From contig NC_092349.1 of the NCBI RefSeq assembly GCF_963676685.1, forward strand, positions 79,422,001-79,486,000: a stretch of DNA of 64,000 bases. The letters run 5' to 3'. The stretch's first letter is position 1, and the number at the start of each line of letters is the position of its first letter. Positions 17,964-58,454 of the stretch are shown in pieces. This DNA comes from Mytilus edulis. Taxonomy: Eukaryota. A program made the position numbers and the translations under genes. The notes below the pieces were generated by a model. The model was not told the DNA's origin. It saw only the letters and a program-made list of their open reading frames with translations, and did no database searches.

Positions 17964-17964
17964 T

Positions 17965-23804: not shown

Positions 23805-23843
23805 GGGAAGTCCCGGGTACGAACATTCGTCGTTGTATAAAAA
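23805..23843 (+). promoter_or_regulatory. Gene A core promoter: kB-like site and TATA box
   Basis: GGGAAGTCCC (23805-23814, fits GGGRNNYYCC); TATAAAAA (23836-23843), conserved in the paralogue. Confidence 0.6.
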
Positions 23844-23864
23844 TAGAAATTTATGATATAAAGT

Positions 23865-24017
23865 ATTAAGATTATATTTTATCCCCGTTTAGTTTAGATA
23901 GTATAGTGCAGACAAAAAACAGAAATCATCGTTACATACTATTCGTCGGCACTGCATTGATAGCTACATTTAGTAAGAGTTCAGTCCACATTTGATGCAG
24001 AACATACAATATTGCAG
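23865..24017 (+). other. Gene A putative non-coding exon 1 (start estimated from TATA)
   Basis: Donor CAG|GTAAGC after 24017, conserved in gene B (AAG|GTAAGC after 51326). Confidence 0.55.
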
Positions 24018-24929
24018 GTAAGCTTTGAACTAACTGAAATAAGATTTCACGATGCAAACCCAAGTATAAAGAAAACATTGAAATTATACAAATGTTTCCC
24101 CCTTATTTCAAAATCTAAAACATATAGAATTTGAGACAGAACTTTGGAGAAAATTCCAGGGAACATTCATGTTTTTGTCATCTATCAAAACGATGATTTT
24201 TTTTAATATTTTGCTTTTCTATGTGAGTTTGTTATTGTTTTGAAATTCAAATAGGGTACATTTAGTGCACTATTGAAGTAATTGAACTCCCTTGAAGACG
24301 CTTTTGTTATGTTGAATATTTACGCGAATGATTTGTAAAAGTTCATTGCCAGTATGAAAAACAATAGCAAAGAAACATACAAAACAGGGTATTTTTTAAC
24401 GGCTCAGTAAAATAATAAATTAATGCGCTTATCATTCAATCATCACGATTGGTGCTGATCGTCTTAAAACAGATGTTGTACATTTTATTTGTAAATTTCA
24501 GCGAAGTGAATAATTTGATAATTTGACAAACCACAATTAGTAAATATATATTGTTTATTTGTGGTTATTTTGTTGAATTATCGCCGGGTGAGTTGTGCGG
24601 TTACGGTATTATTTAAATGTTTCAGCTGGTTAATTATTGATCAAAACGCAATTGATATACTTTGAAAAAAGAATGTAATACATTTATTACTGGTGCCCTT
24701 TAAATTAACAGAGCGAACTTTAAAATCGATATATTTAAAGTTTAAGTTTGGCCTACTGATCAGCATTTACTTTGATAGCAAACAAGTGACAATATTTCTC
24801 ACCTTTTTGTTTGCAATATAGTTCACTGACTTAACGTAAAAGGTATACGGGTATGCCCACACCTAAAAACCAACAACATGAATGTATTTAAATCGTAAAC
24901 ATGGTATCAAAATAAGATATTTTGTGTTC

Positions 24930-25222
24930 TTTTTATGCCCCATTTATGGACATTATATTTTCTGGTCTGTGTGTCCGTTTGTCCGTGTGTCCGTCTGTTT
25001 GTTCGTTTGTCCGTCTGTCCCGCATCAGGTTAAAGTTCTTGGTCGAGGTATTTTTTTAAGAAGTTGAAGTCCAATCAACTTGAAACTTTGTACACATGTT
25101 CCCTATGATATGATCTTTCTAATTTGTATGCCAAATTAGAGTTTTTATCTCATTTTCACAGTCCACTGAACGTACAAAATGATAGCGGGGATGGGGCATC
25201 CTTGTACTAATGACACATTCTT
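24930..25222 (+). mobile_element. HINE/DINE-1-like (Helentron-associated) short element in gene A intron 1
   Basis: Starts TTTTATGCCCC; GTCC/GTCT/GTTT microsatellite; inverted sub-terminal GGGGCAT near the 3' end; T-rich flanks; absent in gene B. Confidence 0.65.
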
Positions 25223-25396
25223 ATTATGTGTCAATTTTGATACAACAATCGAGTATTACTTGTACTGTTAAACATTTTTAAATACAAAAAAGACAATGCA
25301 AATCTTTTTTTATCACAATTTTATTGAAAATATCATTCATTTATCAATCAACGACATTTTTCGTTCATTTTAGATTTTTTTTATAGACCATCCAAT

Positions 25397-25460
25397 ATGA
25401 ATAGAATGTTTGTTTACATTTTTATGATGGTATTCGCTGTGGATAAAGTATCTACGTCAG
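25397..25460 (+). CDS. Gene A coding exon 1, signal peptide (MNRMFVYIFMMVFAVDKVSTS)
   Basis: ATG 25397; donor CAG|GTAAG; same 64-nt coding length in gene B. Confidence 0.8.
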
Positions 25461-25921
25461 GTAAGAAGAAAATAAAATCACATAAATTCTGAACTAATTT
25501 TTTATCGCATTACACATGGTGATATTACTACATGACTTTTTGTACATGGTACACCTTCATTTTCCCTCTACATGCTCTACGTCACCAACCAACGTTTATG
25601 CAATTTCCTACAAAATGTATTTAAATAATTTTCTATACCAAGTAAATAAGGTATGTTTTAAGTTATCACCAGAAAAAATTGTACCTCTTGTACAATGATT
25701 TTTATGAACACTCATATATTTTATCATAGTAACAAATGTGTATAATGATATTAAACGATACACTTATCCTCTTAATTTAAAAATATAGTACAAATGTATC
25801 ACATACTTTGGAAAAGCTGTTTTTCCGAATGTTGCCACTTTTATTAGTCTAAAAAATGCAATCAAAGACTTGTCCATAATTATAATAAAGATATCTTTTA
25901 TCAAATTTAATTTGCTTTCAG

Positions 25922-26248
25922 CTTCGTGGAATCTAACAACCTTGCCCGTTAGCTTTGGAAAAGACGTTATTTTGTGGTGCTACATGGGTGAGAAAAAGGA
26001 AAACAATTTTTCAAAACAACAAACAGATCTTCGACAGTGGACAGGAGGCCAACAATACGATTTGCTTTGTATGGATAATAAATGCCTAAATCCATTTAAG
26101 TATGAAATGTTAACACGAAATAACAGTCAAGATTTTGGGTTATTGATTCACAATTTAAGTGAATCAGATTTGGATTGTCAATACACGTGTTCCTGTGGAT
26201 TTTCTGATTTCACTAAGAAACTATCTGTCGAACCAAACCATGTTATGT
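25922..26248 (+). CDS. Gene A coding exon 2, V-like Ig domain
   Basis: 327-nt phase 1-1 exon; VILWC, RQWTGG and ESDLDCQYTC match the Ig B-, C- and F-strand motifs. Confidence 0.9.
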
Positions 26249-26366
26249 GTAAGTACTTGTAAGTTTTAAAACATGCATAAAAAGTTTAATTGAGTTGTAT
26301 ATCATCCTACATTTTGTTTACATTTAGTAACAAAAGAGACCGGAAATACGAAAAATGACAACCACT

Positions 26367-27215
26367 CAGGGTTTCCGCTGGCGGTCGCCATTTTCGCAAT
26401 TTGCGAAAAAATAATAATAGTGGCGATAAAAATTCGTCATTTGCGAAAGAATTTGGCGAAAGAAATATATAAACCGATTTATTTTCCTCCATCTTGTTTA
26501 TTTACTTTTTTTCGAGTTTCTCGGACTTTACCCGATCAGACAATACTCGGAATTCACCTTGACCTCATTAAGATTTACACAGAAAATCAATAATCAGCTG
26601 ATTGCATTTTATAGCTATCGGCAACAAAGGACTAATTAATAAAGGTGTTGATTGAATTGTTTCACAAAATGATATGGTCAAATGGCTTCCGCTATAAATG
26701 TCACATACAGAATTTATTTACATCTTTGCGACGCACGTGTTTGAAGCAAGTCCCTTTAAAGATAGTTTTGAAAAGAAAGCTGTTGTTGTGACGAAAATTG
26801 TTCAAAAGCAAGAAAAATCTCCGATTTAAAACTTTAATTCTTTTATCCTTTGACTTTAATAAAGGCGTTTGAGTGACACATGCACGTGTTTCAAGCATAG
26901 TTGTACGTCTCAACTTTTGAATTTACGATGGTCAAGAAAAGAAAACTGTCGTTATGAAAAAATCTATCCAAAAGGCTGGGAACAACCCCTCGAATGAGAG
27001 TAACCCTTCAATGTAATGACTACACATGAAATGAGGGATCAATTTCATGTGATAAAAGCTTTTGTTTTGTTGTAAAAATTACTACTTAGTACAAAAGGGC
27101 ACAACAGGAAAAATATATTTATGTTACTTGGCGAAAAAAATAATAAAGTGGCGAAAAATATATTGTTTTGGCGAAAGAGGTGGCGAAAAAAATAATTGAC
27201 CCAGGGGAAACCCTG
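26367..27215. mobile_element. hAT-type MITE in gene A intron
   Basis: 15-bp TIR CAGGGTTTCC(G/C)CTGG; perfect 8-bp TSD CAACCACT (26359-26366, 27216-27223); TGGCGA subterminal repeats. Confidence 0.93.
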
Positions 27216-27493
27216 CAACCACTGTATATCCAATCAAACATTCAGACATAGACAAAATGTCTTTAAAAATGTGGCAATTCCATAATTTAAAGATTTATTT
27301 GAATTTCATACATTTGAAAAAGACAAATAAAAGATTTTTTTAGCGCGATTTGTTAACCCATATGATATTGACGTCAAAGATATTTATTAATTGAATGAGC
27401 AATTAGCATTGTTTGAATAATTTTATTATCGAATGTGATATATTATAATTGACATATTGTTCTATGTTAATATTTTGTTAATTTCCATTATAG

Positions 27494-27612
27494 CTCTACC
27501 AGCTAATCAAACAACAATAACAAATGGAAAAAATATCAACAATGGCAACTTGAAAATAGAAATCATGCTTGATAAGGTGAATCCTGTTCCGCATTGTTCA
27601 GCACTATTTAAG
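27494..27612 (+). CDS. Gene A coding exon 3, first half of domain 2
   Basis: TAG acceptor, AAG|GTGAGA donor; ...IEIMLDKVNPVPHCSALFK; 119 nt as in gene B. Confidence 0.85.
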
Positions 27613-27842
27613 GTGAGAAGGCAAATTACTTAATATTACTAATTAATTCAATTACATACCGAAACACTTTTTACATTCAGCATAAAAATAATGTAGAAAC
27701 AAATACAGTACCGAATGGTACATTTTCCATTCATTTTAATGAAGTAATATTATGTTATGTTTGAGGTAGTGAGATATAAAAATTTACATTAAATCAATAA
27801 TTAAGTAAGGTACTCAAAACAGACCATTCCTCTTTTTTGCAG

Positions 27843-28023
27843 GGTCAGTTTATCAATGAGACAACTGTTACTGTGATGAGGTGGTACACATATCATAACG
27901 ATGTCAGAGTGATTTATAATTTTCCTGTTGACGATATCGGATGTGAAGGGAGACTGCAAATACTGTGCACACTTGTGTATCGTAATGTTACAATTTTTGA
28001 CGAAGACATAGACATGTGTCTAA
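27843..28023 (+). CDS. Gene A coding exon 4, second half of domain 2
   Basis: TTTTTTGCAG acceptor, GTAAGT donor; 181 nt; 45/60 aa identical to gene B. Confidence 0.9.
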
Positions 28024-28365
28024 GTAAGTTTATACTTTTTTTTGGTCTGAATTGCTGTTACTTCTGTTTCGTCTTGCATTGTACAGTAGTAAAAAATGTC
28101 AATGCAAACACTGTAAAGTTGTGCAGTAAACTTGTATCTAATATTTTATTTAACTTTCATAGTTAGTACCTTGCATGTAATAAGTCAAAAATTTAACACG
28201 GCGTTTTCTCCAGTTGACTATCATGTAACATTGGAGAAGACAAAGACAATGTGAACGTAACATTAAACAGGGCTTTTTAATGTGTATTTAAATATATTCT
28301 CATTCTTAATGGCTTTTGAAAATGTGTCTCTTTTCATTAATCTTATGATTGTTTTTAATTTATAG

Positions 28366-28458
28366 AAGAGGAAGCAAGCATGCTGATAATGACTTCACTA
28401 GCCATCGGATTTTCAGGATGTGTTATAATATTGTCGATTTGCATATGGTTGACTAAAA
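28366..28458 (+). CDS. Gene A coding exon 5, transmembrane helix
   Basis: 93-nt phase 1-1 exon, MLIMTSLAIGFSGCVIILSICIWLTK; GTAAGT donor. Confidence 0.85.
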
Positions 28459-28484
28459 GTAAGTTTAATATTCTATTTAATGAG

Positions 28485-29095
28485 ACACATAATAGATTTA
28501 GTGATCACTTACATCTTATATATCAAAGTGAACTTGAAATTAAAGATATTATAGACACAGATAAATCTGCTTCATATTTAGACCTTTTTCTCGAAATGAC
28601 CACTGATTGTAGGTTGAATACCAAAATTGATGACAATCGTGATGATTTTAATTTTCCTATAGTCAACTTTCCATTTCTGTGTAGCAACATCCCAGCGGCA
28701 CCAAAAGCTAAGTACGTTGATTTTGATGAACGAGGAATACTGCTTTCTCAAAAGTTGCTAAGACAGGGCTATGAATCAAACAAATTGAGGTCATTACTCA
28801 AGAAATTTTACGGACGCCATCATCAGCTGATTGGCCACTGTGACAAAAGTGTGTCAGAAATCATATCTGATATTCTTACTCAGTCATAATAATATACCGA
28901 ACTAAAAGAAGAAATAACACGACGGGTGCCGTATACGGTGCAGTAAATGCTTACCCTTCCGGGGCACCTAATTTAACTCCCGGGTTTTAGTGGAGTTCTT
29001 GTTGTTTCTTATTCATTATTTATAACTGTTTATGTAGATGTCCTTTGGTTTTGTGAGTCTTTGTTTACTCCTTGGTTTTGATTGTTGTTGTCTTA
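28485..29095 (+). mobile_element. Penelope-like 3' fragment (RT C-terminus and 3' UTR) in the intron after the gene A TM exon
   Basis: ELEIKD..SASYLDL..RDDFNFPIVNFPFLCSNIP..LKKFYGRH, homologous to 8880-9216; absent in gene B. Confidence 0.85.
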
Positions 29096-29995
29096 TGACA
29101 CTTCGTTTAGTCAAATACAATGTAAATTTACTCCCCATAGACACCAGCGTAATATTTTGTGTGCCGGACGGGTGATAATTCTACACAAAACTTTATCAGA
29201 ATAACAAAAAGTAGCAACGATTAAATACAGTATAACATTGTAGAGAATTTTTTGTCAAATACCGATAGGGTGGGGTTCGTGTCCTTTATTCTTTAGTTTT
29301 CTATGTTGTGTCATGTGTACTATTGTTTGTCTGTTTGTCTTTTTCATTTTTAGCCATGGCGTAATGAGTTTATTTCCGATTTATGAGTTTGACTGTCCCT
29401 CTGGTATCTTTCGTCCCTCTTTTATCTTCATGTGTATTCCTTGGTTATTATTCCAAACGGTTTATATATAAGGATGCTATATCATTATTATTCATGTCAA
29501 AACAGAAGTGCTGACCAAAGGGATAGTGATCCTGACGGCAAAGAAAACTTATCATATATATATAATCACCTGAATGAATTTTTTTTACGCCAAATGCTCG
29601 TTTTGTTAACCAAAGACTCAACCATGTCAACAGTAACGCTTGAATATAAACGTTAAAAAGGCCAGCATACGCAGAATCAAATTTACGGCTGCTTGGATTA
29701 ATACAAACTATATTCATTGTTTTAATAGCTCTTTAAATCAGTTGAGATGAATAGAAATAAGCAGCCTACGTTGATACGTTTCAAACGATCAAAAGATGAA
29801 CGTAGAATTCGATTACTCAATCGTATTGTATTGTTCAATTTATTAGTAGTTTTAAAAATATTTCGTACCAAATAGTTTTGTTTTTAACATATAGTTGAAA
29901 GTCTAAAATGTTTGGACTTGACAGGTATAAAGTTTTATCTTAACATAAACATGATCAACACTCACAATATAATTTCAACTTTTTCTTTTTGAAAG

Positions 29996-30141
29996 GACGT
30001 AAGGACCAGTTTGATTTACGATGCTGGACCAACGGAAAGAAGAAACAAATGGACAGTACAATTGTCAATCAAGTGCAATTACTGACTCCTTCAGAAAAAT
30101 ATCATCATGAAAAAGAAACATCAACAATGATAGACGTCTAG
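29996..30141 (+). CDS. Gene A coding exon 6, cytoplasmic tail
   Basis: Polypyrimidine tract plus AAG acceptor; RRKDQFDLRCWTNGKKKQ...ETSTMIDV*; basic stop-transfer cluster; homologous sequence in gene B. Confidence 0.7.
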
Positions 30142-30963
30142 TCAATATTTGTTTATCATCATGATTGTGAACATTTGCAATACGTTTCAAGTGTACTGTA
30201 CTGATGCTTGTGTTATCACGACACAGTAACATTTGGCAGTTCAATGATGTCATTCTGTGAAATGACCCCGGACCAACCGGTTTAACTCTTTATTAACAAG
30301 AGAACTAGAGATACGTACATTGATAAAAACATGATTTGTCCACCAATTAAATACTAATGTACTGCTTATGATTGTTGATTAAACAGAAGATATCAAAGTC
30401 AGGAAACACCATCCATTACTATGAATCAAGATAGTGCATTTTAGCGTAAGAAGGTCCTATCAATGAATTTTATCAGTATCTAAGCAGAATTGTATTTTGT
30501 ATTTATTGTATTAAATCAATTTTCTAATATGATATGACTACCATGAAGGTCTTTCACAATCAGTTTTTTGAGAGTACCATTTCATTATGTGAAGTCATCT
30601 GTAAATATGTCCTATTCATGACCAGCAAGTATTATTTCATATTTCAAGGTGCAGCTAAACGTGTTATAATTGTTTTATGTGTTGTAGATAAAGGAAAGTG
30701 TTAAGATTCATTGATAAGTCGTGTATAATTGGTATTATTTATTGTAATAATGAATTCAAAAGTGTGATTGTGAAAATGGATGCATTTCATGAAGTCCTTA
30801 GCCTTTGGCAATTGCTGATAACCAATTTGAAAGGCTTCATTTACAAGATTTAGATTAGACAAGTACAGGTATCAGTTTTCGAAGACGAACATAACATTGT
30901 GAACTTGTTAAGTGCTTTCAACAATTATGATATTAATAATTTTTTTTTATAAAATATGTTTTA

Positions 30964-30969
30964 AATAAA
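30964..30969 (+). terminator. Putative poly(A) signal of gene A
   Basis: AATAAA at the end of a 3' UTR block conserved with gene B (57822-57827). Confidence 0.5.
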
Positions 30970-33289
30970 GCCTATTGAGAACTATATAGGTTACGTTGAA
31001 TATTTTATACTGCTTTTCTTCTTCATACCAAATAGTTAAAGCGGTAATGATCATCCATTCATCAATGACCGGAAAATTTAAATAACAGATATAATGTTAA
31101 ATCGCAAAAATTCAAAAGGGAAATTCCCTAATCAAATGGCAAAATCAAATGAGTAAAACATCAAACGAAAGGACAACAACTGTCATATTTCTGACTTGGA
31201 ACAGGCATTTTCAAATGTAGAAAATGTTGAATTGGACCTGGTTTTATAGCGCTAAACCTCTCACTTGTATGACAGTTGCATCAAATTCCAGGTTCCTTGC
31301 TTATTGTATATTGTGTTTATGTGTGTTGAATTAAGGAATAAAAGGAAATGACACAATACATTTAGTGCGTCAGAAGGGCTTTTCATGATTTCAATCATTT
31401 CCGAACCAGGGATGCATTGCTAACTTATAGCGCAAAAGGACATGTTAAATAGAGGAACGAAATTATGTTTGTCATTTTGGGACATTTATAGCCGACCGGT
31501 TGAGTTTGTATCAATGTTAAAGGAGGTATGATTGCCTTACATGTACTTCGTTTAAATTTTGGTAGATAGTTGTCTTATTGGCAATCATACCACATCTTAT
31601 TGTAATACAGAAAAAAAACCAGCAAATTATATAACATTGTACACGAGACATCTTATATAGATGATTTCCTGTCAACGAATTGTCCTGATTTCGTATAACG
31701 ATGATGTTCAAATTATAAAACCGCAATCCTGTTTTCTCTTCTTTGATTGGGGAGTAATACATGGAGCCTCATATTCGGATTTTTGTAACAGCACAACACT
31801 TGCTCCAACATATAGAACTGTGGCGTAAGTTATACTGAAATGCTCACGACGTATGACCTATTCTACTCGTATAATATTTTGAGGAAAATTTCGAATAAAA
31901 CAAGAAGTTGTAGTATGTTGGCAATTGAGGCAACCCACTACAACAGACCAAATGACACAGAAATGTTTATCTATTAGTCATGATACAGTCTTCAACAATA
32001 CCGCTTCATCAGCTATAAAAGTCCCCGGAATGACAAATGGAAAACAATTCAACTAGAAAATTAACGGCCTCATTCAAGCACAAAAAATGAACGAATCACA
32101 AATAGGTAACACATCATCAAACGACAACCAAGGAATTATTTGGCTATTTCATTAGGGTCTTTCTGTTTTGAATTTTCTTCGGAGTTCAGTATTTTTGTGA
32201 TTTTACTTTTTACAGACTTCTGACTTGGGACAGGCACATGCACAAATAATGTGGTGCGGTCAATCATGTCAGTGGGATCCAAACCCTCATCCTCACCTGG
32301 GACATAGGTTTAACAGTACAACATAAGAACGAACTATATACATCAGTAGAAAAAGGCTTAGGGAAGGGTTGGGATACCGCGAACATGTTAAATCCCGCCA
32401 CATTATTTATGTATCTGCCTGTCTGAAGTCAGGAGCTTGTTATTCAGTGGTCGTTTGTTTATGCGTAACATATTTGTTTTTAGTTCATTTTTTTTTATAT
32501 ATAATTATGCCGTTAGTTTTCTGGTTTGAATTGTTTTACATTGTCATATCGGGGCCTTTTATAGCTGACTATGGCCTTAGTTCATTGTTGAAGGCCGTAC
32601 AGTGACCTATAGTTGTTAATGTCTGTGTCATTTTGGTTTCTTGTGAACAGTTGTCTCATTGGCAATCCTACCACATCTTCTTTTTTTATATTAACTCATC
32701 AGATAGATACAAATAAAAATACAATTAACAAAAACAGAGTGGACCTGGCCGGGTACTAAACATATACTTGTATTTCCCAACAACAAAAACACACTAAGGT
32801 AAGATCTAAGAGTTCTTTCAGATATTGTCACAGTTAGTTCAAAGCAACTAACAACTAATAACAGCAATCATGCATCTAAGGCTAAATTATCAATCAGTAC
32901 ACACCCAAGGTTGTCTTTGTCTTAGATATGACGACACAATAATATTCCTCTGATCCTACAAAGCACGTTTTGTTGTAACCAGTGACTAATCTGTATTTTC
33001 AAACATACAAACTGTCAGATGATAACACGGTTCACGTCTGTGAGAAATACAAAACAAATGTTCACAGCTAATTGTATAGAGTTATAGCATCTCATTATCA
33101 TATCTTATATTATATTCAAGATACAAAATGACGTTAATTTGTTTCTGATAGAAGGGAGTATTTCAGAAAAATACAAGTTTTGAGATCAGATTTCATGAAA
33201 TTTTGATAATTTTTGTTTAACTGTTATATTTACAAAACCTATGCTCATAAAATGATATTATTTATATAATACTTTTAGTATTCAAAACG

Positions 33290-34532
33290 AATTAAAATAT
33301 TTTAAAAGTTACTCTTTGCAAGAAATACCGGTAATGTTATATCTAATGGTGTTTGTATTGGAATTGGAAATGAACAACTACAAATCGTTGAGCAAAACAA
33401 GTACCTGGGCGTTATTTTTAGCGAGAAACTTAAATATACTGCTGCAGCGGATGCATTTGTCAAAGCCGGTGGTAGAGGACTTGGTGCTGCTATTTTAAAA
33501 GTTCATTCATACAAAGGAATTGGATTTAAAACCTTTGAAACTGTGTTTAACTTCTGTGTCAGCCCTGTTTTAGATTATTTTTCTGGTGTTTGGGGCTACA
33601 ATACTTATAATGGCATTGATATGATACAAAACAGAGCAGTACGTTATGTCTGTGGTTTACATCGGTTTGCACCCATTATATCATTAAACAGTTAATTTGG
33701 CTGGTTACCACCAATGCAGAAAAAATTGTTAAATATGGCACGCCTATGAAACCGTGTCATTCTTATGGACGACGAGAGACTCACGAAAAAAGTTTTCGAG
33801 TGGGAGTATAAGATTACTAGTAATTGATTATGGTTTACACAAGCTATGGACATCTTTAATAAACTTGGTTTAAGTTACCTCTATGAAACAAAACAAATAG
33901 TGGACATACCAGAAGCTTAAGAAAAACTTTTATGTTATACTGAAAGTGAATGGAAATACAAATCTGCTTTATCACCGAAACTACGAACATTTGTGACCTT
34001 CAAAGAAAATTACGAACTAGAACAGTATATCACATCACGTCTAAACAAGAACGATCGGCTCTTTCCCAATTAAGATGTGGGATTGTTCCTATACGCATTG
34101 AGACTGGAAGGTTCCGTAACGAAGCGCTACCAGACCGAATATGTGTACTGTGTGAAAAGCAAGAGGTCGAAGATGAAAAACATTTTATGTTAAACTGTCC
34201 ATGTTATGACAAACTTAGACAAAGGTTTCTACCTATGGCCGCATTAGACAATTTTAGTGACAATAGCGAAAAACTTATCCTTTTATTGAAATACTATCAA
34301 ATTCAAACTGCAAAATGTTTAAATTCAGCTTCCATTCATAGAAAAAAACAACTTTACGTCTAATTCTGTATTTTTATTTTGTAAACTTTTACGTTTTTGG
34401 ATATGATTTTATATTGCTTAAGTGACATATAGGTCCAATGGGCCGGGTGTAAATATCAAATTGTTATGTATATAATTGTATAAATGTATGTTGTAATACA
34501 CATGTCACTATATAAATAATTACTTACTTACT
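33290..34532 (+). mobile_element. Decayed LINE 3' fragment
   Basis: YKYLG-like and DYFSGVWG motifs with stops; C-terminal IETGR..RICVLC..EDEKHFMLNC zinc-finger; (TTAC)n tail at ~34520-34532. Confidence 0.85.
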
Positions 34533-35439
34533 ATATCTTATGGTGTTTGTATACGTACGCGCGTTATTATTAGAGCAAAGTGTAACATTAAAATTACTAT
34601 TCAAGACAAAACATGTTAAGTGATACAAAATCCGTAAAAACCCATAGATAATTGTTGTTATTGACGTCAATAAAGGTATACGTGTATTACATGTATTATT
34701 AGGTCACGTTGATAATTTGAAACTGGAGGTGATTTCCCCCAATGTCCTATCGTTTATGTTTGTAATATTAACTGATGTGCACGAATATCAAATCAACGAA
34801 AATATCAAAGTACATTGAAATGTTACTAACTAGTCTTTGTGCGGTCGTAAAAAGTACAAATATATACTAGTTGCGGGTTGTGCATGTTTTAAACTGAAAA
34901 TATTTCTGTGTACATATTTTTGTATATACTCAGATACAACAAAACGAATTAGCAGTTTCGGTTAGCGTGATTTGTTCTTCAAAGTTTGCCGGTTGTCGTT
35001 TGTTTTTGTTTATAGTTTTATGCATAAACCAGGCTGAAAGTTTTCTCGTATGAACATTTTTGTGTGTTTGCTATTACAGAGTCTTTCATAGTTAATGTTT
35101 GTATATTTGTCGCTCGTTGAATTTTGCTTGTCACTATAATCTGTGTCATTTAATTGGTGTCTGGCCAAGGTTGTCTCATTGAAAATCATACCGAATTTCT
35201 TACAAGAGTTCTATCCTATATATTAAATTCCCTTAGCAGCTGTACGACGGACAACTGGTGCAAAGTAAAGAAAATATGAGTCAACGGTCACAGTACACCA
35301 ATGCTTAAAAAACCCCACATAAAGTCAGTTATATACGCGAAATGGCATATATGAAACAACTCAAACGAGTTCTAATTGAATTACGAATGCGGTAGAACTA
35401 ATTTTAAACGTTAATACTTTTAATGAAAATCCTATCTTG

Positions 35440-38400: not shown

Positions 38401-38880
38401 TAATAGTATTCTATTGTTTTTATATTATTTTGTTTATAAAATTGTTTATGATCAATATGTTTTAAATTAATTCTTTAATACTAAAGGTCAACCAGTGCTT
38501 ATTAAATACATTATAATGATATAAATTTATAACTCCGTTTCAAACTGTGAGTAATACATGACAATTAATAAAATGTGTTCACCAAAAAAAAAAAAAAAAA
38601 GGAAAACAAGAATTGAGGGTTATCCCGGAGCTTCTGATCGGTTGTAAGTGTTGGTTATTAAACGAGTCCTGCTTTCTTCATTTAACTGTTTTTATTCTTA
38701 TTTGCCATTAGTTTAGTTAGGTTGCCTTTACTTCCCTCATTTCGGATAAATCTTGAAGATATTTTGATAGCACATGTTTTCATCTGCTTTTAATTTGGCC
38801 TTGTTTGGAATTTGTCAGGAAATCATTTCTTTATTAGTATCTTTATAATATCTATATAAAATTATAATCCTGGTACTTTT
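35440..38880 (+). repeat. Older tandem duplication, unit 1 (second unit ~38890-47220, expanded by insertions)
   Basis: 35440-36030 ~ 38890-39460; 37795-37830 ~ 40445-40480; 38060-38870 ~ 46390-47220. Confidence 0.7.
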
Positions 38881-43300: not shown

Positions 43301-43474
43301 AGTTAGGTCCGCAGCAGAGAGGTTCATTGACTTCTTCTGCTAAAATTCTTCTGCCACTATTTGAATCATAAATAAGCCATCACTAGAATGTAAGATATAA
43401 TAAAGTCAGTCTAGACAATTTTTTCTAATGTATAACATGTATCACTTATAGGTTTAAGTACAGATACATCTTTT

Positions 43475-45845
43475 AGGTCTGCTGAATTTTGGAAAGTTTT
43501 AAATAAATTCTCTCCGAAACAAAAAAAGGAAAGTCCAATTTCACTAGAAGTAATGTATGCACATTTTAAGAAGCTTAACGAAAGTGTGGCAAATGAGGAG
43601 GAAGAGTTTAAATTACCTAACCTAGAGTTAAATGAGTTCGACGAAATTTTAAATGGGCCTATTACCGAGGAAGAAATTATCAAAGTCATTAAAAAATTAA
43701 AAAATAACAAAGCCGCTGGATATGATGGAATAAGAAACGAGTTTATTAAAAATTCCATGTCTGTATGTTTACCTCTTTATGTAAAACTGTTCAATTTTGT
43801 ATTCGACACAGGGATTATACCCGAAATCTGGTCAATGGGAATAATTAATTCCATTTATAAGAATAAGGGAGCTCTTAACGATCCAGACTCGTATCGAGGT
43901 ATTACACTGGTATCATGTTTAGGTAAAGTATTTACAGCTATACTAAATAACAGACTAGACAAGTTTGCCCAAGAAGTAGAATTACTCTCAAAATGCCAAG
44001 CGGGATTTAGGAAAGGGTACTCCACACTTGATAATATATTTAGTTTATACTGTTTGATTCAACTTTATTTACTCTCTGGAAAACGTTTATTCTGCACATT
44101 TGTAGATTTCAAGAAAGCCTTTGATACTGTATGGAGGGTAGGACTGTGGCAAAAGCTTATTTCTAGTAATATAACCGGCAAAATATTTAAGTCTATTTAT
44201 AACCTCTATTCTAATGTCAAATCATGTGTAAGACATAACTCGAGTTGTTCAAATTTCTTTCCGTGCGAAGTTGGAGTTAGGCAAGGTGAAAACTTATCAC
44301 CCTTTCTTTTTTCTATTTTCCTTAATGATCTTGAAAGCTATTTTATTCAGCATGATATAACAGGTTTAGAAAAGGTAAATGAATACTGTCTAAATGAACT
44401 AGGCATTTATATTCGAATTTTCTTGTTATTATATGCTGATGATACAATATTATTAGCAGAATCAGCTAACGATTTACAAATAATGTTAAACAAGTTTGAT
44501 GAATACTGTACTGACTGGAAACTAAATGTAAACATTGATAAGACAAAAGTAATGGTGTTTGAGAAGGCGAAGCGTAAAAGAAATATGAGATTCATGCTAA
44601 GGGGCGAGGAGTTACAGCTCACCGACAGTTATAATTACCTGGGATTATTAATAAGATACAATTGTAATTTTAATTTATCAAAGAAAAAACTTGTTGAACA
44701 ATCACAAAAAGCACTGTATGCATTATACTATAAGTTAAGAAATGTAAACATCCCTTCAGATCTGCAGTTTCGACTATTTGATTGTATGGTCGCTCCAATT
44801 TTGCTTTATGGGTCGGAAATCTGGGGTCACGAAAATGTTGACATGATTGAAAAGGTGCACTTGAGTTTCCTAAAAAGAGTCCTGAATGTTAGATCAACAA
44901 CACCAAACTATATGGTCTATGGGGAAACTGGCAGATTTCCATTAAAAATTAATATCAAAACTAAATTACTATGCTTTTGGTCAAGGCTAGTGCAAAGCAG
45001 TAGTAACAAATTATCTGGGATCTTGTATCAGTTAATGTATAACTTACATAACTCAGGCCAATACTCATTTAAATGGTTATCTTCCGTGAAACAAATTTTA
45101 GATGATACAGGATTTTCTTTTGTCTGGAATGCACAGGGTGATATCAAAAGTTCGGATATTAAAAAAGAAATAAAACAGAGATTGGTTGACCAATTCGGAC
45201 AGAGCCTATCTGCTGATATGACAAACTCATCTAGAGGTGTGTTTTATGCTTCATACAAAACAATGTTTTGTTTAGAGCCATATTTACTCAATCTTAAAGT
45301 GGCAGATCGATACATCTACAGTAAATTTAGATGTTCAAACATCAAAATCCCTATAGAAGTTGGTCGGTGGAAAAATACACCAAGAGAAAATCGTATATGC
45401 TGTCACTGCGATTCAAATACCATTGGTGACGAATATCATTATTTTTTTGTATGTTCCAATAAACAAATTATGTCTTTAAGAGAAAGGTATATACCTACAT
45501 ATTACATAAAAAATCCTTCCCAATTGAAATTTATTGGTCTATTATCACACTGTAACGTGCCAGTGCTAACAAAAGTGTGCATGTTTCTAAGACATATTGA
45601 AAAAATATTTTCATAATTCATAGCATGTTACAATAATTTCTAACCACGTTGCAATTAAGAATTTTGCAAACAAATCAACCAAATATATTTCAGTTTTATT
45701 GTATGATATCAATTATTAATCTATTGTGTGACTTTCTTGTAAATGTATAAGTATGTATGTAATTTTTAATGTATAATTGTTATCCTCTTGTAGCACCATA
45801 CGTGTGCCTAAGTTGTAATAAATTGTCTTGTCTTGTCTTGTCTTG
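43475..45845 (+). mobile_element. 5'-truncated non-LTR retrotransposon (RTE-X or CR1/L2-like clade)
   Basis: Open RT frame, AATAAA at ~45817 and a (TCTTG)n tail; endonuclease domain missing. Confidence 0.93.
43553..45616 (+). CDS. LINE ORF2 fragment: reverse transcriptase and C-terminal CCHC finger (687 aa)
   Basis: KAAGYDGI, YRGITL, QAGFR, FVDFKKAFD, GVRQGENLSP, LYADD, YNYLG, LYGSEIWG, C..C..GDEYH...C. The frame continues upstream (FWKVL), so this ATG is internal. Confidence 0.92.
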   Translation: MYAHFKKLNESVANEEEEFKLPNLELNEFDEILNGPITEEEIIKVIKKLKNNKAAGYDGIRNEFIKNSMSVCLPLYVKLFNFVFDTGIIPEIWSMGIINSIYKNKGALNDPDSYRGITLVSCLGKVFTAILNNRLDKFAQEVELLSKCQAGFRKGYSTLDNIFSLYCLIQLYLLSGKRLFCTFVDFKKAFDTVWRVGLWQKLISSNITGKIFKSIYNLYSNVKSCVRHNSSCSNFFPCEVGVRQGENLSPFLFSIFLNDLESYFIQHDITGLEKVNEYCLNELGIYIRIFLLLYADDTILLAESANDLQIMLNKFDEYCTDWKLNVNIDKTKVMVFEKAKRKRNMRFMLRGEELQLTDSYNYLGLLIRYNCNFNLSKKKLVEQSQKALYALYYKLRNVNIPSDLQFRLFDCMVAPILLYGSEIWGHENVDMIEKVHLSFLKRVLNVRSTTPNYMVYGETGRFPLKINIKTKLLCFWSRLVQSSSNKLSGILYQLMYNLHNSGQYSFKWLSSVKQILDDTGFSFVWNAQGDIKSSDIKKEIKQRLVDQFGQSLSADMTNSSRGVFYASYKTMFCLEPYLLNLKVADRYIYSKFRCSNIKIPIEVGRWKNTPRENRICCHCDSNTIGDEYHYFFVCSNKQIMSLRERYIPTYYIKNPSQLKFIGLLSHCNVPVLTKVCMFLRHIEKIFS

Positions 45846-46998: not shown

Positions 46999-47048
46999 GG
47001 GGGGGGGGGGGGGGGGGGTTGTTGTTGTTGGGTTTTTTTGGGGGGGGG
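46999..47048 (+). repeat. Poly-G / GTT low-complexity tract
   Basis: G20, (TTG)n, T7, G9. Confidence 0.9.
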
Positions 47049-50000: not shown

Positions 50001-51124
50001 CGTCAAAATTTTGATAGTATTTAAATAGTTCTTGATCTATTAGTATTGCTTACACTTTATACTTTATAAAGATGACTTCTACAAATATAGTTTGCTGATC
50101 AATTTAAAACGCCGAAATCACGCAAGATATAAACCTAAAATAAAATAGTAATGTGCCATAACGAGATGTAATGAATAATCAGTTCTTTGGAACATACAAT
50201 TTATAAAGTTTTATATTAGATTTCTATATGGTCAACACGACGATTAGATGACATATTAAAAGCATCAAAAAATGAAATTAGTATAGGCGAATGGGCCTTT
50301 TTATATAGGAAAGCAGGAGATAACATTAGTTCACACAAAACTTGATAGCGGAACAATTTGTAAAAATTTAACACTTTATTTAAACATAAATCACTGTCTT
50401 ATTTGTGATGTTATCAGATAGTTGTGGCTTGAGTATCTGTTTAATGTCATATTTGGTAAGAAGTAATTGAATATCAAATGAGACATCGGTTAACCAAACC
50501 GCAATCTATATCTATAAAGAAGCTATCAGTATATATGTAAGTAGAAATTTAACGCTATCATACCCATTTAAAGGAATTGATATAACTTTAAAATAGGTGT
50601 ATAATTCACGGTAAAAGATATATTGTTAATCTTTAATGTCGTTTTAAGTCACGGACGGGACAGTGTATATTTGTTTTTGTGTTGTTTTTTTTTTTTTATA
50701 TTAGATCAAGGTTAAAGGGCTACATGTAAAACAAATAAAAGGTGCGCTCATAATTTAGGTCACATATGAATGAGATTGTTTTTTTTTGTTTTTATTTAAA
50801 TTTTAAACGTATGTGTTTTTTCTGTAATTATGATAGACCGATAAATATTTCAACAATTATTATGATTCTTTATGGTATTTCAAAGGCAATCATATTTTTG
50901 TCATGTTATTTTCAAACGATTGTCTTTTAAGCCTAAAAAAGGTGCGCATTATAGTATCGAATTTGCAATGTGAATGCGTTATAGCACATGTAGCAGTATC
51001 GTATGGAGTGAAACAGGTGCTATATTTTAATTGAATCTTTAAAGTTCTCTCTGTCCAATTATCATATTGCACTGGTTCTAACATAAAAGATGGTATACCT
51101 GTTTTAGGTAGACATAAAAATATG

Positions 51125-51162
51125 GTGAAGTCCCTGTACAAGCTTACGTCATTGTATAAAAA
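51125..51162 (+). promoter_or_regulatory. Gene B core promoter: degenerate kB site, CRE-like site, TATA box
   Basis: GTGAAGTCCC (51125-51134), TTACGTCA (51144-51151), TATAAAAA (51155-51162). Confidence 0.55.
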
Positions 51163-51184
51163 TAGAAAATTATGATATTTAATA

Positions 51185-51326
51185 TTTACGTTCATGTCGC
51201 ATCCTCATTTAGTTAACATAGATTATTAAAGATGCATGGATACACAAATCATTATAACCTTCTCTTCGATAATAATTGGTAGCTTTATTAAACATTTATT
51301 CTTATGCAGAACATATATTAACGAAG
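51185..51326 (+). other. Gene B putative non-coding exon 1 (start estimated)
   Basis: Homologous to gene A exon 1; donor AAG|GTAAGC. Confidence 0.55.
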
Positions 51327-52739
51327 GTAAGCCTTAAGATAACTGCAATAAAGGATTTTTGATGCAAACTTAGGCAGTACTACTAAATAAAACTATCGTT
51401 CTACGGGGCACGCAATTTTATACATGTACAATGTACCTCAAAAACGTTCATGATATCCGCATGTAATACGTTAACATCTCCATAAAATGGGCATGTTTAC
51501 TCATCTATTAAAACGACGATTTCCTGAGAAGAAAAAAAACCCAATGAAAGTGTGTTTGTTTTCTTTTTTATACATTTTCTACGTTAGCTTTTCCTGTTGT
51601 TTTTTGCTAATTATTATAATTTTAGTCAAATAACCAGTAATTGAATCTTCAAAATACATTGTTTTCGTGAATAACAGGAGCAACGAGACGAAAACATTAA
51701 ACATTAAAACTTCATATATCATTTACAATCGTACCAAAACATCTTGGTTTGTATCAATTTTCTTTTAATGATGACGATTGGTAAGCTCATCCTATTTAAC
51801 ATGTCGTACTGTTGGCGGTTTATACATGTACTGAATCGTAGCATATGATTGAATATTGAAGAACTGCAAGCTTGAACTAGTGCATGAAATACTTTTGATT
51901 TTTAACCGAAAGCAAATGGTTTTAATAGCGCCTGGTGATATTTGTGGTTATATCATAGTTTAAATGTTTTGACGGGTTAAATTATGACCAAACCGCTAGT
52001 ATTGAAACACTTTAAAAAAAAAAGTACAAAGGTATATATTTATAGCGTGGGTACCCCTTTAAATTTACTAATTGAAGTTAAAGAATAAAAATATGATTGA
52101 AGGCTTGATTTTAATACTATTGATAAGGATTTACTGTCATATCAAGTTGTAAGACGGTGACAGTATAGTGTTTTATTTTGTTTGTTGTTTGATTTGCAAC
52201 ATAATCAATTGAATAAATGTATCAAATTCTGGGTGAGGTCAAAATAAAAATAAATAATGAGATTGATATCTGGAAAATATTAAAGGTTATCTAGATAAGT
52301 ACTGTTGTTATGTTTTGTAGCATATGGACAATCAAAATATATCAGACCTAACACACAATGTAAAAGCATAGAAAACAAAGAAATTTTATTATTAGGTAAG
52401 GTAGCTCTTTTCATGAAAGTGACAAGATAGTGTTTTCTTTTGTTTGTGGTTTGATTTGCAATATTATGAATTGAATTTATGTAATAGATATAAGGGCGTG
52501 CACCAAAATCTAAATAATGAACGAGATAGTAATTGTGAACAAAAATTGAAGGTTATCTAGATATGTGTTTATGTATAGTTTATTTTGATAGAGCGATCGA
52601 ATATCAATCGTACTGTTATGATATTATTTAAACACTTAAACATTAAAAAAAATCGTTTTGTCAAAAACAGATTGTTGAACATATCACGCATCTATAATCA
52701 ACAAATTCTACTTTTTTTCTAGATTGCTTTAAAGACCAT

Positions 52740-52803
52740 ATGAATAGAATGTTGGTTCACATTGTTATGGTTGTATTAGTTGCTGGTAAAGCATCTACGT
52801 CTG
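52740..52803 (+). CDS. Gene B coding exon 1, signal peptide (MNRMLVHIVMVVLVAGKASTS)
   Basis: Acceptor AG 52721-52722, ATG 52740, donor G|GTAAGT. Confidence 0.8.
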
Positions 52804-53509
52804 GTAAGTATTTCATTAATATTTCACACATATAAAAAGGCGACGATATTCCACGGTGCTGAGTGGTTTTGTTTAAATACGGTCCATTAACAACACAAGC
52901 GTCACCCGGAAGAGACACACAGATCAAACCAAGTTCCTTATTTCAATAAGTTGAGTACATACGTTAGCATAATGAAATGATCTTGTGATTGTTTCATATA
53001 AAGTCGACGCCAATATAAAGAATTATAACAGGAAGAACGACTTCCACATGTAGGTATACGGCATAAATGTCTTAACCATGCCAAACTATAGATTCATATT
53101 TTGAACTGTAAGTATCTTTTTTTTAAAGGTTCAACGTAAGCATTTTGGTTCTGTTTAAATGTATGACTAGTGCAAACGTTCAAACATTCGTTTAACTGAT
53201 GCAATATAATTAGCAAGTGCTCAATAAGTGTTGCATGAAATATATCAGTGTGATGCAACTCCATTAATTGTTTCATAATGTATTTCCTTTTACCACTACG
53301 ACACCGATACAGGTTTTGATAACATCATTTCAAATCATTTATTTTCTATAAAATTTTCTTTGAATCTACCTCCTATTGTTTCTAAAATATAATTTAACAA
53401 AAAAGTGTAACATATTTGGGAAAATTCGTTTTCCGAACATAATCAGTTTATTCTTCTAATGCATACATGTATATACTTTTTAACAGTTATAATTAAAAAT
53501 TGCTTTCAG

Positions 53510-53833
53510 GTACGTGGAAACTGACTAACACTAGAGTAACATTTGGAAAAGATGTTTATCTGATGTGCCTTCTTGATGAAGTTGAATGTAATACTTCCAA
53601 ACAAGAACCAGACCCTAGAGGTTGGACAGGGGGTCCACAATACCAATTACTGTGTATGGACGGTGATTGTCGAAACTCATCTAAGTATGAAATGATTACA
53701 CAAAGTACCAGTCTAAATTTTGGATTATTGATACACAATTTTAGTGAATCAGATATAAACCACTCATACACGTGTTCCTGTGGATTCAATGATTTCCATG
53801 GAAATCTTTCTATTGAACCAAAACAAGTTATAT
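53510..53833 (+). CDS. Gene B coding exon 2, V-like Ig domain
   Basis: VYLMC, RGWTGG, ESDINHSYTCSCGF; phase 1-1. Confidence 0.9.
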
Positions 53834-53954
53834 GTAAGTACTTGTTAAGTAATAAAAATGTATATCATTTGGAGTTTTTTTTTTTACGTAAAATACATGT
53901 AAGCAGGAAGTCTAACAGTATAGATATCAAACTCTGAAGATTATATCAAATATC

Positions 53955-54547
53955 TTTAGAAAGATTCGTGGTATACCGCCATCTTAGATCGACAATTCCG
54001 TACAAAATCGGTCTAGTTATTTGGAGACAGATTTGCAATTTACTGGTTAGACTGTTTATTGATATAAAAAAGCTTGGTGATTTCTTGTATAACTCAAAAT
54101 ATTTAAACAAATTTCAAATTTTGTGTTTTTAGAATCTGTCTTTTCAAATAAACCATTTAAAGATAGATCATGTTTTTAGTAAAATAGGATTTGTTTTTTG
54201 TTTTTTATCGTAGCACGAAAATAAGTTCGGTGACACCATTTTTATTTATATTTTCTTATTGTAAATAATATATTATCATGATTATAAAACCTATATTCTC
54301 ACAATTCATTTCAAATTTCTATTTCATAGATTTTTTTTATGCACACAAATGTGTTGTTTTTTTCTGAACAAACAAACCAAATGTATACAATTTTCAACGA
54401 CTCATAGCTTGGAAAATAGCACGGTGACCCATACTTTTTATCATATCTTTAAAAATGCATTGTAAAAACTTCATTTTGGCAATACTAATGAGTCTTATGG
54501 TAATAACTCTAGACACATCTATCAAGAAAACGGGCATTTCTCGTAGG
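53955..54547. mobile_element. Probable DNA-transposon-derived insertion in gene B intron
   Basis: No counterpart in the equivalent gene A intron; no clear TIR or TSD found. Confidence 0.3.
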
Positions 54548-54643
54548 TTAAATATGTTGATTACCCCATAAGAAATACTTGTTTTCATGTATTGAAATTA
54601 AAGAAATACCATTTATATTTACTACTTTTTATTTCTGTTGCAG

Positions 54644-54762
54644 CGTTACAATCAATTACAAAAACAATAAAAGATAAAAACAATATCAACAACGACAACA
54701 TGGCAATAGAAATAATTCTTCACAAGGTGAACCCTGTTCCAAACTGCTCAGCATTGCTTAAG
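54644..54762 (+). CDS. Gene B coding exon 3
   Basis: TTGCAG acceptor, AAG|GTGAGA donor; IEIILHKVNPVPNCSALLK. Confidence 0.85.
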
Positions 54763-54985
54763 GTGAGAAGGCATAACTACTTTATGTTTTTATTTCATTT
54801 CAAATGCATCCTGAAAATCTGATTTCATTGTCACAAGTAAAAGATATATATCACAATTCAATTGCATTGCCTTATTTGAAGATACATCTTATCAACAATA
54901 ATTTTGTTTATTTAGATAGTTCTGATACGTTAGATACACTGTATGCACAGAAAAAAATTGAAGAGACCTCCTCTTTTTTTTGCAG

Positions 54986-55166
54986 GGTCGGTTTATCAAT
55001 AATGCAACTGTTACTGTTATGAAATGGTACACGTATTACAACGATGTTAAGGTGGTTTATGATTTTCCTGTAGACAGTGTCGGTTGTGAAGGTAGACTGC
55101 AAATACTTTGCAACCTTGTGTATAGTAATGTCACAATTTTTGACGAATACATAGATATATGTCAAG
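54986..55166 (+). CDS. Gene B coding exon 4
   Basis: TTTTGCAG acceptor, G|GTAAGC donor; 181 nt. Confidence 0.9.
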
Positions 55167-55444
55167 GTAAGCTTAATTTAATTTCTACAGTTTTCTAATT
55201 CGATCTTCCTTCTATTATGTCTTGAATAGGATCGTGATGGTTCATATTTTGTAAAGATTCAGTGTGAAACTGAGGTGTAGCAAGCATCGTCCAAACACTA
55301 ACTTCAGCAAAAAGTAATCTGCTTTGTAAAACAGGACTTGATCATTTCTACATGTATACTATTCTTTTTTTTGAAGGATGGTGTGAATTCACATACAACA
55401 GTGAGGAAAGATATCATACTCAAAATTTGTATTAATGTATCTAA

Positions 55445-55560
55445 ATTTAAGATAGGTGTCGAGTGCACCTGCAAAAGGGGGGTTCGAACTCACAACCTCA
55501 TTGTTAGCCAGTGATTACTGTAGTAGAACTACATAGACCACTTGGCAAACGAGACCCCTA
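55445..55560 (-). mobile_element. tRNA-derived SINE head in gene B intron
   Basis: Minus strand TTGCCAAGTGG (A-box-like) and AGTTCGAACCC (B box). Confidence 0.55.
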
Positions 55561-55650
55561 ACGCGTGTATGAAAAAGTCTTATTTCGTTTGTTCTATATT
55601 GAAATAAAACTCTTTTTTATGTTTATTCTATTTTTGTTTCTAATTTTTAG

Positions 55651-55743
55651 AAAACAAATTGAGCATGCGGACAATGGTTTTACCAGCCATCGGGTGTTGT
55701 GTGTTTGTTATGATTTTGTTGATTTGCATATATTTGGTTAAAA
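55651..55743 (+). CDS. Gene B coding exon 5, transmembrane helix
   Basis: 93 nt; NKLSMRTMVLPAIGCCVFVMILLICIYLVK; GTAAGT donor. Confidence 0.85.
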
Positions 55744-56511
55744 GTAAGTTTTAAAGTACTTTTTATATTTCGATATCGTTCGAATCTTACCTCACAATGA
55801 AAAATATAACAAGTGTCTTGTCTCTCTAAATTCTCATGAAAAGCAAAATTGCCACATCATAATTGTTCCGTGAATTTTGATTTAAATGTCTTTACTATAT
55901 ATTGATTCTTATATGAATTACAGAGTTTTCTGTCTAAATTATTAATATCAAAACAGAAGCAATATAAGATTGTCAATGAATTAAATGCATAAAATTCATC
56001 AACGACTTTAGGTTAATACATTCATAAACAATATCAAAATATATAATAAAAAAAAAAAGACTCAAATAAGAAAACAAAATAATAAAATGATATCTAACAC
56101 TTTGCCGTCGAATGTCTTAAGTGTGTGTAGATTGTATGCATGCTGCATCGTTTACAGCTCTTTTTGGTAAAAACAAAACCTGTTTTTTTCTGGATAGCGC
56201 TATTTTGATTTGTATAAACTGGACAGTAAAATTTGCATTGTATGTATTTACTCCATGCCAAGAGTCCAAATGAGTACTTGTTTTAATCGTGAAGTGAAAT
56301 GATATCGGCGTCATTCGAATATATGATAAAAACGATTAAAAGTTGAGATGTAAATTCAATTACTGAATCTATCGTTCTGGTCATTGTATTAGTTGAATAT
56401 TTTCTTGAATAATTACTTGAAAGTTAAAACACTAAAATGTTTACAATTTTTGCAGTTTGATAAAAGTAATTACTTAAATAATTTGAATTCATTCATTTTT
56501 CTCGTCCTCAG

Positions 56512-56549
56512 GAAATGACACGATGTACCATTTGGCAGATAATGTTTGA
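56512..56549 (+). CDS. Gene B coding exon 6, short cytoplasmic tail (RNDTMYHLADNV*)
   Basis: Strong acceptor TTTTTCTCGTCCTCAG; stop TGA 56547-56549. The frame homologous to gene A's tail is shifted by one. Confidence 0.6.
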
Positions 56550-57821
56550 CCAATGAAAAGACGAAACAAAGTGCAATAACCAATCAAGATCAATCAATAA
56601 TTGCAGACGATAATAATCATGAAACTGAAAAATCACTACACGAAATGTTGCTTTCGGGACGTTAACCCGTACATTTCCGATTACACAATGCTTGCGTTAT
56701 AACGTCACAGTAACACTGACTTATTCAATTATGATATTTACGATTGATAACTCCAGCCAACCACTGTAGAGCATTCACAAAATAGAACAGGAGATTAGTT
56801 TATTTGTTGAAACAAGACATTTAGCAAATAAATACAGTTGAATTGCTAAATTAAATTTCGGCTAGTAAGTATTATCAAATATCATTTTTGTATATATCAT
56901 TTAGCTATTTTAATTGACTTTTTTTGTATTTTAAATTTGTTATGCAGACCAAAGAAAAACAAATTGTCAAGTGCCTTTATTTCTCTATTAAAGGTAAAAA
57001 ATGTAGGTTAAAGACAAATACAGTTATTGTACATGGGATTGAATTAAAACAAAACAATTTATATGAAAGGACATACATTAATTTCTATCAATTATGATTT
57101 GAGTTTGTCATGTTTGCAGCAGTATCATGTAATTTATACTGTTCATTGAGCATCATTTCGGATGCATTCCATAACACGCTAAAACAGAGTTAGCATCACA
57201 ACTCATTTGTAGAATTTCACATAAGTTCAATCTTTTTTGTGCAAAAGATTTAAGTATTAATTTACCGAATTTTACAGCTAACATAGTCTTTATCAGGAAC
57301 TAGAGGCAGAGCTAGGTAATATATAAGGAACAGCATTCCATTGGTATATCAAACAAATAAAAACATTTTCTAAATAGTTACATGATCATACTTTCGGATG
57401 AATACTCCGATCTCCGATTCAAAGTGAGTTTAGCACTTTTGTTAATAATATATTCACTGCTTTACTATGCAATTTTGACATACCATTTCCTTGCTTGATA
57501 TCATCTGTAAATATTTCCTATCAGCAAGTATCATTTCGTATTTCAATGTGCAGCTAAACGTGTTATAAGTGTAAATGTTTTAGAATATAACGTAAGATGT
57601 TAGAATGTTTATGTAATAAATCATGTGCGACTATTATTTATTGTATATGTGTTTATGTAGTGTTATTGTCCAAATGCATGCAATCAATAAAACTGAAAGC
57701 GTTTGGCCAATGCTTGGGCATCATTTACAATCTTTTACGCACATCAGTTTGATAAGACGAACATATAACTTTTCATGTGTATGATTTTGTTATTGCTCAA
57801 TGTTTTTGTTAACCTGTTTTA

Positions 57822-57827
57822 AATAAA
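57822..57827 (+). terminator. Putative poly(A) signal of gene B
   Basis: AATAAA in the same context (TGTTTTAAATAAA) as in gene A. Confidence 0.5.
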
Positions 57828-58410: not shown

Positions 58411-58454
58411 GATAAATAACCTCATCATAGATACCAGGATTAAATTTAGTATAT

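Follow-up and report, generated by a model that had tools for sequence, protein, structure and literature searches.

The window analysed here is a stretch of 64,000 nucleotides of the Mytilus edulis genome (GCF_963676685.1, contig NC_092349.1, positions 79,422,001 to 79,486,000 of the forward strand), and it carries two genes of six coding exons each on the + strand: gene A (coding sequence 25397-30142, 309 amino acids) and gene B (coding sequence 52740-56549, 272 amino acids). Their products are 59% identical over 269 residues, all introns are bounded by GT..AG and the intron phases (1,1,0,1,1) are identical between both genes. Both encode a signal peptide, a V-set immunoglobulin (Ig) domain, a second Ig domain split between two exons, a transmembrane (TM) segment and a short tail. 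The exons, in window coordinates and with the evidence for each, are as follows (UTR, untranslated region).

23891..24017 (start approximate), + strand: gene A 5′-UTR exon; RNA contig 23891-24015 with 2 differences, joint from 24017
25397..25460, + strand: gene A signal-peptide exon, coding part; joint 25456>25918 GT..AG in 3 of 3 contig runs
25922..26248, + strand: gene A V-set Ig exon, phase 1-1 (C41, W61, D104, Y109, C111); joint 26248>27494
27494..27612, + strand: gene A second Ig domain, first half (VNPVPHC; C165 on strand C); sequence and model
27843..28023, + strand: gene A second Ig domain, second half (C204, C212, C229); RNA pieces 27841-28020
28366..28458, + strand: gene A transmembrane exon, uncharged; joint 28458>29996
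29996..30142, + strand: gene A cytoplasmic tail exon, 48 amino acids, C-terminus IDV; 3′-UTR covered to about 30926
51298..51326, + strand: gene B 5′-UTR exon (3′ end given, start not fixed); joint 51324>52721 GT..AG
52740..52803, + strand: gene B signal-peptide exon, coding part; sequence and RNA contigs
53510..53833, + strand: gene B V-set Ig exon; sequence and RNA contigs
54644..54762, + strand: gene B second Ig domain, first half; sequence and RNA contigs
54986..55166, + strand: gene B second Ig domain, second half; RNA contigs
55651..55743, + strand: gene B transmembrane exon, uncharged; sequence and RNA contigs
56512..56549, + strand: gene B tail exon, 12-residue tail in a shifted frame; 3′-UTR covered to about 57777

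A and B are real, spliced and expressed genes. The five coding joints of gene B are all found in RNA contigs, each in two or three of the three contig runs, and four of the five of gene A are found among the joints listed. Contigs were placed at 90% likeness, and close paralogues (V exons 92% identical) may add to the cover of gene A; pieces with one or two differences span its UTR, second domain and tail. These assembled contigs carry no RNA label on record and were taken as RNA because they are spliced. Two raw-read runs under another species label, about 6% of each of which was read, gave no depth over most exon bins, a result that speaks neither for nor against expression. The exons, phases and joints bear out the two spliced genes of common architecture that had been proposed from the letters of the window alone (hereafter the sequence-only reading), and the seven or eight N-glycosylation sequons noted there for each protein correspond to seven in gene A and nine in gene B, eight of them extracellular. 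Gene A equals the public model P0026 at 100% and gene B residues 62-333 of P0008 at 100%, both recorded as 'uncharacterized protein [Mytilus edulis]'. Models P0006 and P0008 have an extra stretch of 61 N-terminal residues ahead of the signal peptide (window 53236-53328 and 54320-54394), which is doubtful and partially matches sequence within later introns of gene B.

Predicted fold, cysteines and tails

AlphaFold2 predicted, from an alignment of 67 sequences, a V domain (residues 22-121), a C-type Ig domain (138-227) and a TM helix at a mean predicted local distance difference test (pLDDT) score of 84.7; an alignment of 34 close sequences reached 43, and only the 67-sequence model was used. 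The hallmarks C41, W61, D104, Y109 and C111 are invariant in 67 of 67 sequences and the modelled V domain has V topology with strands C′ and C″, so that the motifs which the sequence-only reading singled out as unusual turn out to be the ordinary V-set C-strand Trp and DxxxYxC. What marks the V domain as belonging to this family is GG, KY and xxG. At the 30 loci examined the domain lies in one exon with AG..GT phase 1-1 boundaries, the donor of one locus (L024) being doubtful. Pfam detects it poorly: at E≤0.1, V-set was matched by 8 of 28 members and Ig_3 by 13 of 28, with a best E of 4e-6, and gene A reached only E 0.24 against V-set.

The second domain is modelled as a seven-strand Ig sandwich with pLDDT mostly above 90, and the structure search aligned the protein to V-C pairs across residues 19-230. 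Four cysteines are kept in it: Cys165 on strand C (66/67), Cys204 in the EF loop (60/67), Cys212 on strand F (67/67) and Cys229 at the end of G (60/67). The alignment has no Cys column on strand B, neither the canonical B-F disulphide with its C-strand Trp nor a Pfam C-set match was found, and a second Ig domain without the B-strand cysteine is, on the alignment and the model, the distinctive trait of the family. Judging by the strand positions, the bonds C165-C212 (strand C to F) and C204-C229 probably replace the B-F bond; a C-F bond is also present in domain 2 of CD4. After strand B the mussel domain has a Y/F-P-x-P corner, which is shared by CD80-like C2 domains. The ectodomain is therefore predicted to consist of a V-set and a C-type Ig domain, and the Ig-like nature suggested at the outset agrees with the model, the V-set hallmarks and the structural neighbours. 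Among the latter, Foldseek and VIA put first BTN3A (Z 12.5, root mean square deviation (rmsd) 6.3, 244 residues aligned), Neph1 D1-D2 (Z 12.1, rmsd 3.8, 190 aligned) and Rst D1-D2 (Z 12.0, rmsd 4.3, 194 aligned). A CD200-like protein came first in a library of viral models, and CD200/CD200R, fasciclin-3-like and CD80-like C2 clusters of the Atlas, at 0.85-0.89, are leads only. At the sequence level, the top PDB matches of the V profile include DIP-alpha (8e-6), DIP-gamma, RIG-5 and Dpr6, with titin and antibodies mixed in.

Immunoreceptor tyrosine-based inhibitory and activation motifs (ITIM and ITAM) were scored by their consensus. In agreement with the sequence-only reading, the scan of A and B found the TM segments uncharged and the tails free of ITIM and ITAM. 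The same nearly holds across the family: of 50 members that have both domain 2 and a TM segment, none has an ITAM, one has an ITIM-like motif, three have a charged residue within the scored TM window and 19 lack Tyr altogether. Because the tails have no signalling motif, the term receptor is doubtful. The tails of the 50 are short and mutually unrelated. In the local subfamily, many of whose records are nearly the same, 24 of 26 end in Val or Ile, mostly as hydrophobic-x-Val, which is a PDZ-ligand-like consensus. One RNA contig, with a loose end at 55164, joins a second-domain end of the copy E type straight to the tail exon of E, a neighbouring copy of the genes described below, skipping the TM exon, and models P0017 and P0023 also lack that exon; soluble forms thus probably exist. 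The TM exons themselves show ratios of nonsynonymous to synonymous change (dN/dS) of 1 or more in 12 of 15 pairs of copies Z, A, B, C, D and E, over about 20 synonymous sites, a pattern that could reflect a loosening of constraint, conversion or selection acting on the TM segment.

Tandem copies, family extent and variation

What had been described as a tandem pair is part of a larger array. Within 261 kb read around the window, seven same-strand copies (Z, A, B, C, D, E and F) lie at C6:79.389-79.603 Mb. In copy D the signal-peptide exon contains two stops and the V exon is missing, with only about 120 bp between the signal exon and domain 2, and its counterparts in M. galloprovincialis (P0037) and M. 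trossulus (P0022) models are whole. A copy dead here and intact in relatives supports the proposed birth-and-death mode of evolution; the gene B region, for its part, is matched by DNA runs of three species labels. Copy C has a stop close to the end of the tail. The 12-residue tail of gene B is a frameshifted long tail; the ancestral form can still be made out in another frame, and P0002, the counterpart in M. coruscus, has it intact. Five further V exons follow within 430 kb downstream of the array, and in the stretches read there four of these are accompanied by a second domain split in the same way.

Genome searches accepted 78 of 120, 112 of 150 and 56 of 133 scored candidates, the union being 115 V exons, which is a lower bound on V exons and not a number of genes (some genes have two V exons, and three matches contain stops). 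They are spread over 12 large contigs, with 37 on C6 and 36 on C14, and 86 lie less than 300 kb from another. In the C14:34.64-35.02 Mb cluster V exons are paired 1-2.5 kb apart, and models P0052, P0054, P0055 and P0078 have two V domains each; together they probably represent a two-V subfamily.

A profile built from 28 V exons matched 759 representatives at E≤0.001 and 417 at 1e-10. From the best 150 of the 759, 19 giant multi-Ig proteins were set aside as generic Ig matches, their best domain scoring 7-26 bits vs at least 71, and of the 131 kept, 67 carry both halves of domain 2 and four have two V domains. Two matches, P0204 with an EGF fusion and P0207 with a kringle fusion, may be gene-model joins. 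All named relatives are from Mytilus (edulis, galloprovincialis, trossulus, coruscus and californianus), and the lineage-specific character claimed by the sequence-only reading stands as far as an expanded family with named relatives only in this genus; restriction to Mytilus is not established, since of ten distant representatives looked up six were named Mytilus and four had no name. Literature searches, subscription journals being outside their coverage, found no description of this family, and six accession numbers included in them gave 0 matches. As far as these searches go the family is unnamed and undescribed, although a two-Ig surface protein is a known kind of molecule.

How do the copies differ? 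In pairwise counts, dN/dS of the V domain was 0.17-0.50 in all 15 local pairs and 0.17-0.91 in all 13 pairs taking in other clusters. The V domain is under purifying selection, and positive selection on it was not found in these counts. In divergent pairs the replacements cluster in the BC and C-C″ loops. A comparison with other assemblies, small in sample (three counterparts of A and two of B), gave V domains 95-99% identical to those of other M. edulis and M. galloprovincialis models, and few variants were seen in the RNA contigs over A and B. A and B are therefore stable rather than hyperpolymorphic, and the word diversifying, whether taken as positive selection or as high allelic polymorphism, is not supported.

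Variation is distributed unevenly along the genes. Alleles of gene B are 90% identical at the amino acid level in the second-half domain vs 98-99% in V, and P0033 and copy E are 69% identical in V and 95% in the second-half domain. Synonymous divergence differs by exon between B and E (V vs the rest, p 6e-6) and between Z and A (V and TM vs the second-half domain, p 0.004), with no significant difference between A and B (p 0.30). Approximately unbiased (AU) tests, from which two chimeric models and copy F were excluded, rejected shared groupings of V and the rest in three of five cases. Exon-level mosaicism of the copies is supported by these observations. A different kind of chimera is seen in public models P0006 and P0001 of two Mytilus species, where the 5′ half of gene B is spliced to the 3′ half of copy E, 68 kb downstream, across two copies (C6:79474740-79546897). 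Mis-mapped junction reads are the most likely source, because the downstream exons share their first 15 bases and differ at one of the first 24, the common B allele has the E-type residue there, and gene B contigs take the normal path.

Possible roles of the family

What might such proteins do? The best explanation, to which we give an even chance, is that A and B, as single-pass glycoproteins, work as cell-surface recognition or adhesion tags whose V domain binds a partner on another cell and which have no signalling motif of their own. The membrane-distal V domain would be the module that binds the partner protein, as in CD200, B7/butyrophilin, JAM/nectin and Neph/Rst, and the heavily glycosylated C-type domain would be a spacer, probably held by its two bonds. 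The short tails may only anchor the protein, or may bind a scaffold through their PDZ-ligand-like ends. Tandem duplication and the swapping of exon-sized tracts would enlarge the repertoire, after which each paralogue would change rather little; diversity would thus reside among genes and not among alleles. Forms with a short tail or a skipped TM exon might be decoys or modulators.

The order of signal peptide, V-set, C-type Ig, TM and short tail is that of B7/butyrophilin, CD200/CD200R and JAM/nectin-type proteins, and BTN3A and the viral CD200-like protein are the top structural matches. The mussel proteins reach only 12-16% identity with these, show no homology particular to B7/butyrophilin (12-15% identity), have no B30.2 domain (the tails of A and B are 12-48 residues) and place the domain 2 cysteines on C, the EF loop, F and the end of G rather than on B; no orthology is shown. 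Rst/Kirre/Neph D1-D2 give the best rmsd across both domains (Neph1 3.8 Å, Rst 4.3 Å). Neph and Rst are conserved genes of low copy number whose products have five Ig domains, whereas the mussel family has two Ig domains (two V and C in 4 of the 131 matches) and quick turnover. Beat is a multigene Ig family of surface tags (PMC11999971), as the mussel family would be. The Alr genes of Hydractinia are likewise divergent V-set TM genes, pseudogenes included, that have expanded in an invertebrate and are barely detected by Pfam; as described in PMC9546547, they have V, I-set and Fn3-like domains, ITAM/ITIM tails, high polymorphism and a single genomic complex, and beyond the V domain none of these was found in the mussel genes examined. 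Among molluscs, FREPs, MDM and oyster CgIgIT2 (PMC11999971) are also Ig-domain genes, and the Ig(+Fn3)+TM genes of pearl oyster are clustered and variable in copy number (PMC9646362). Compared with these, the mussel family has another architecture, lacking fibrinogen, Fn3, a five-Ig chain and a tyrosine motif.

We consider rather unlikely, though deserving of attention, that the family is a germline-encoded set of innate immune receptors, or of decoys, for microbial or parasite molecules, signalling through a separate chain. At least 115 V exons, the 86 that lie close to another, pseudogene and mosaic copies, variable BC and C-C″ loops and the TM-skipped RNA of a neighbouring copy would all fit it, as would Ig-gene copy-number variation between pearl oyster haplotypes (PMC9646362) and the enrichment of V-set and Ig domains among dispensable mussel genes (V-set false discovery rate 4e-5; PMC7653742, Table S52). 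It is opposed by the near absence of ITIM, ITAM and charged TM residues, by V dN/dS below 1 throughout and by the stability of A and B across assemblies and species. The stability and the limited RNA variants also speak against an allorecognition locus for self/non-self discrimination like Alr, relevant to transmissible mussel cancers, which we hold to be very improbable: A and B differ by only 1-5% in V between assemblies, the family is spread over 12 large contigs rather than one complex, and the I-set/Fn3 region and ITAM/ITIM tails of Alr, as given in PMC9546547, have no equivalent. Its attraction lies in the clustering of V-set TM genes with pseudogenes and recombination, as in the 41-gene Alr family (PMC9546547), and in one comparison, P0033 vs copy E, where divergent V domains sit on near-identical 3′ halves.

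A code for wiring or tissue sorting of the Beat/Side, Dpr/DIP or Rst/Kirre type, or a gamete-surface set, with heterophilic binding between paralogues, seems improbable. The match of the V profile to DIP and Dpr proteins, the lowest rmsd for Rst and Neph D1-D2 and paralogues that are divergent while each is individually conserved would agree with it, but the DIP/Dpr matches are generic Ig scores amid titin and antibodies, and turnover and pseudogenisation appear faster than a fixed wiring code would lead one to expect. Several points weigh against the surface-tag explanation itself. Antibody Fab chains tie with the top structural neighbours (Z 11.3-12.5, all at 7-17% identity), so that the fold is silent on function. 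In the BC loop of A and E, 23 replacements fall on 32 nonsynonymous sites, which would also suit ligand diversification against microbes, and for part of the family the V-set enrichment among dispensable genes noted above points to defence. The AU groups were picked after the trees had been viewed, and a hydrophobic C-terminus is only weakly enriched family-wide (13/45, p 0.03).

In another mytilid, C1-set, CD80-like and V-set terms are enriched in gill or mantle (PMC5549309). A bolder version of the proposal, which we see as a long shot, is a hundred-gene V+C Ig repertoire that reshuffles V exons against the membrane-proximal half, perhaps with long-range splicing between tandem genes, into a germline code of cell identity and recognition with soluble and short-tail decoys; if true, such a repertoire would be a candidate for telling transmissible cancer cells from self. 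In animals, lineage-specific expansions of Ig genes are frequent, and one without a function is a useful catalogue entry and no surprise. What is delimited here is one of the larger unnamed families of mussel surface proteins (at least 115 V exons), mostly missed by Pfam and recognisable by a diagnostic signature: W-x-GG, KY and DxxxYxCxxG in V, and a Y/F-P-x-P-x-C second domain split by a phase-0 intron. With a fold, a signature and an evolutionary pattern to go by, the family can be tested in data from haemocytes, gill, gametes and transmissible cancers.

Repeats and mobile elements in the window

Between genes A and B, a frame of 726 amino acids at 43436-45613 (+ strand) matches RVT_1 (E 6e-34) and belongs to an element of the long interspersed nuclear element (LINE) type. 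The introns of gene A contain highly repeated elements under very deep RNA contig cover. Weak Pfam matches only were obtained for fragments at 7515-9300, 28460-28900 and 33950-34360, which look like decayed retroelements. Upstream of gene A, 15349-20580 is a head-to-tail duplication of 2616 bp at 99.9% identity, either very recent or an assembly artefact. Downstream of gene B, a 365-bp unit is repeated 2.8 times in tandem at 58413-59438, and two related minisatellite arrays with units of 91-94 bp lie nearby in opposite orientation at 60560-61816 and 62429-63097.

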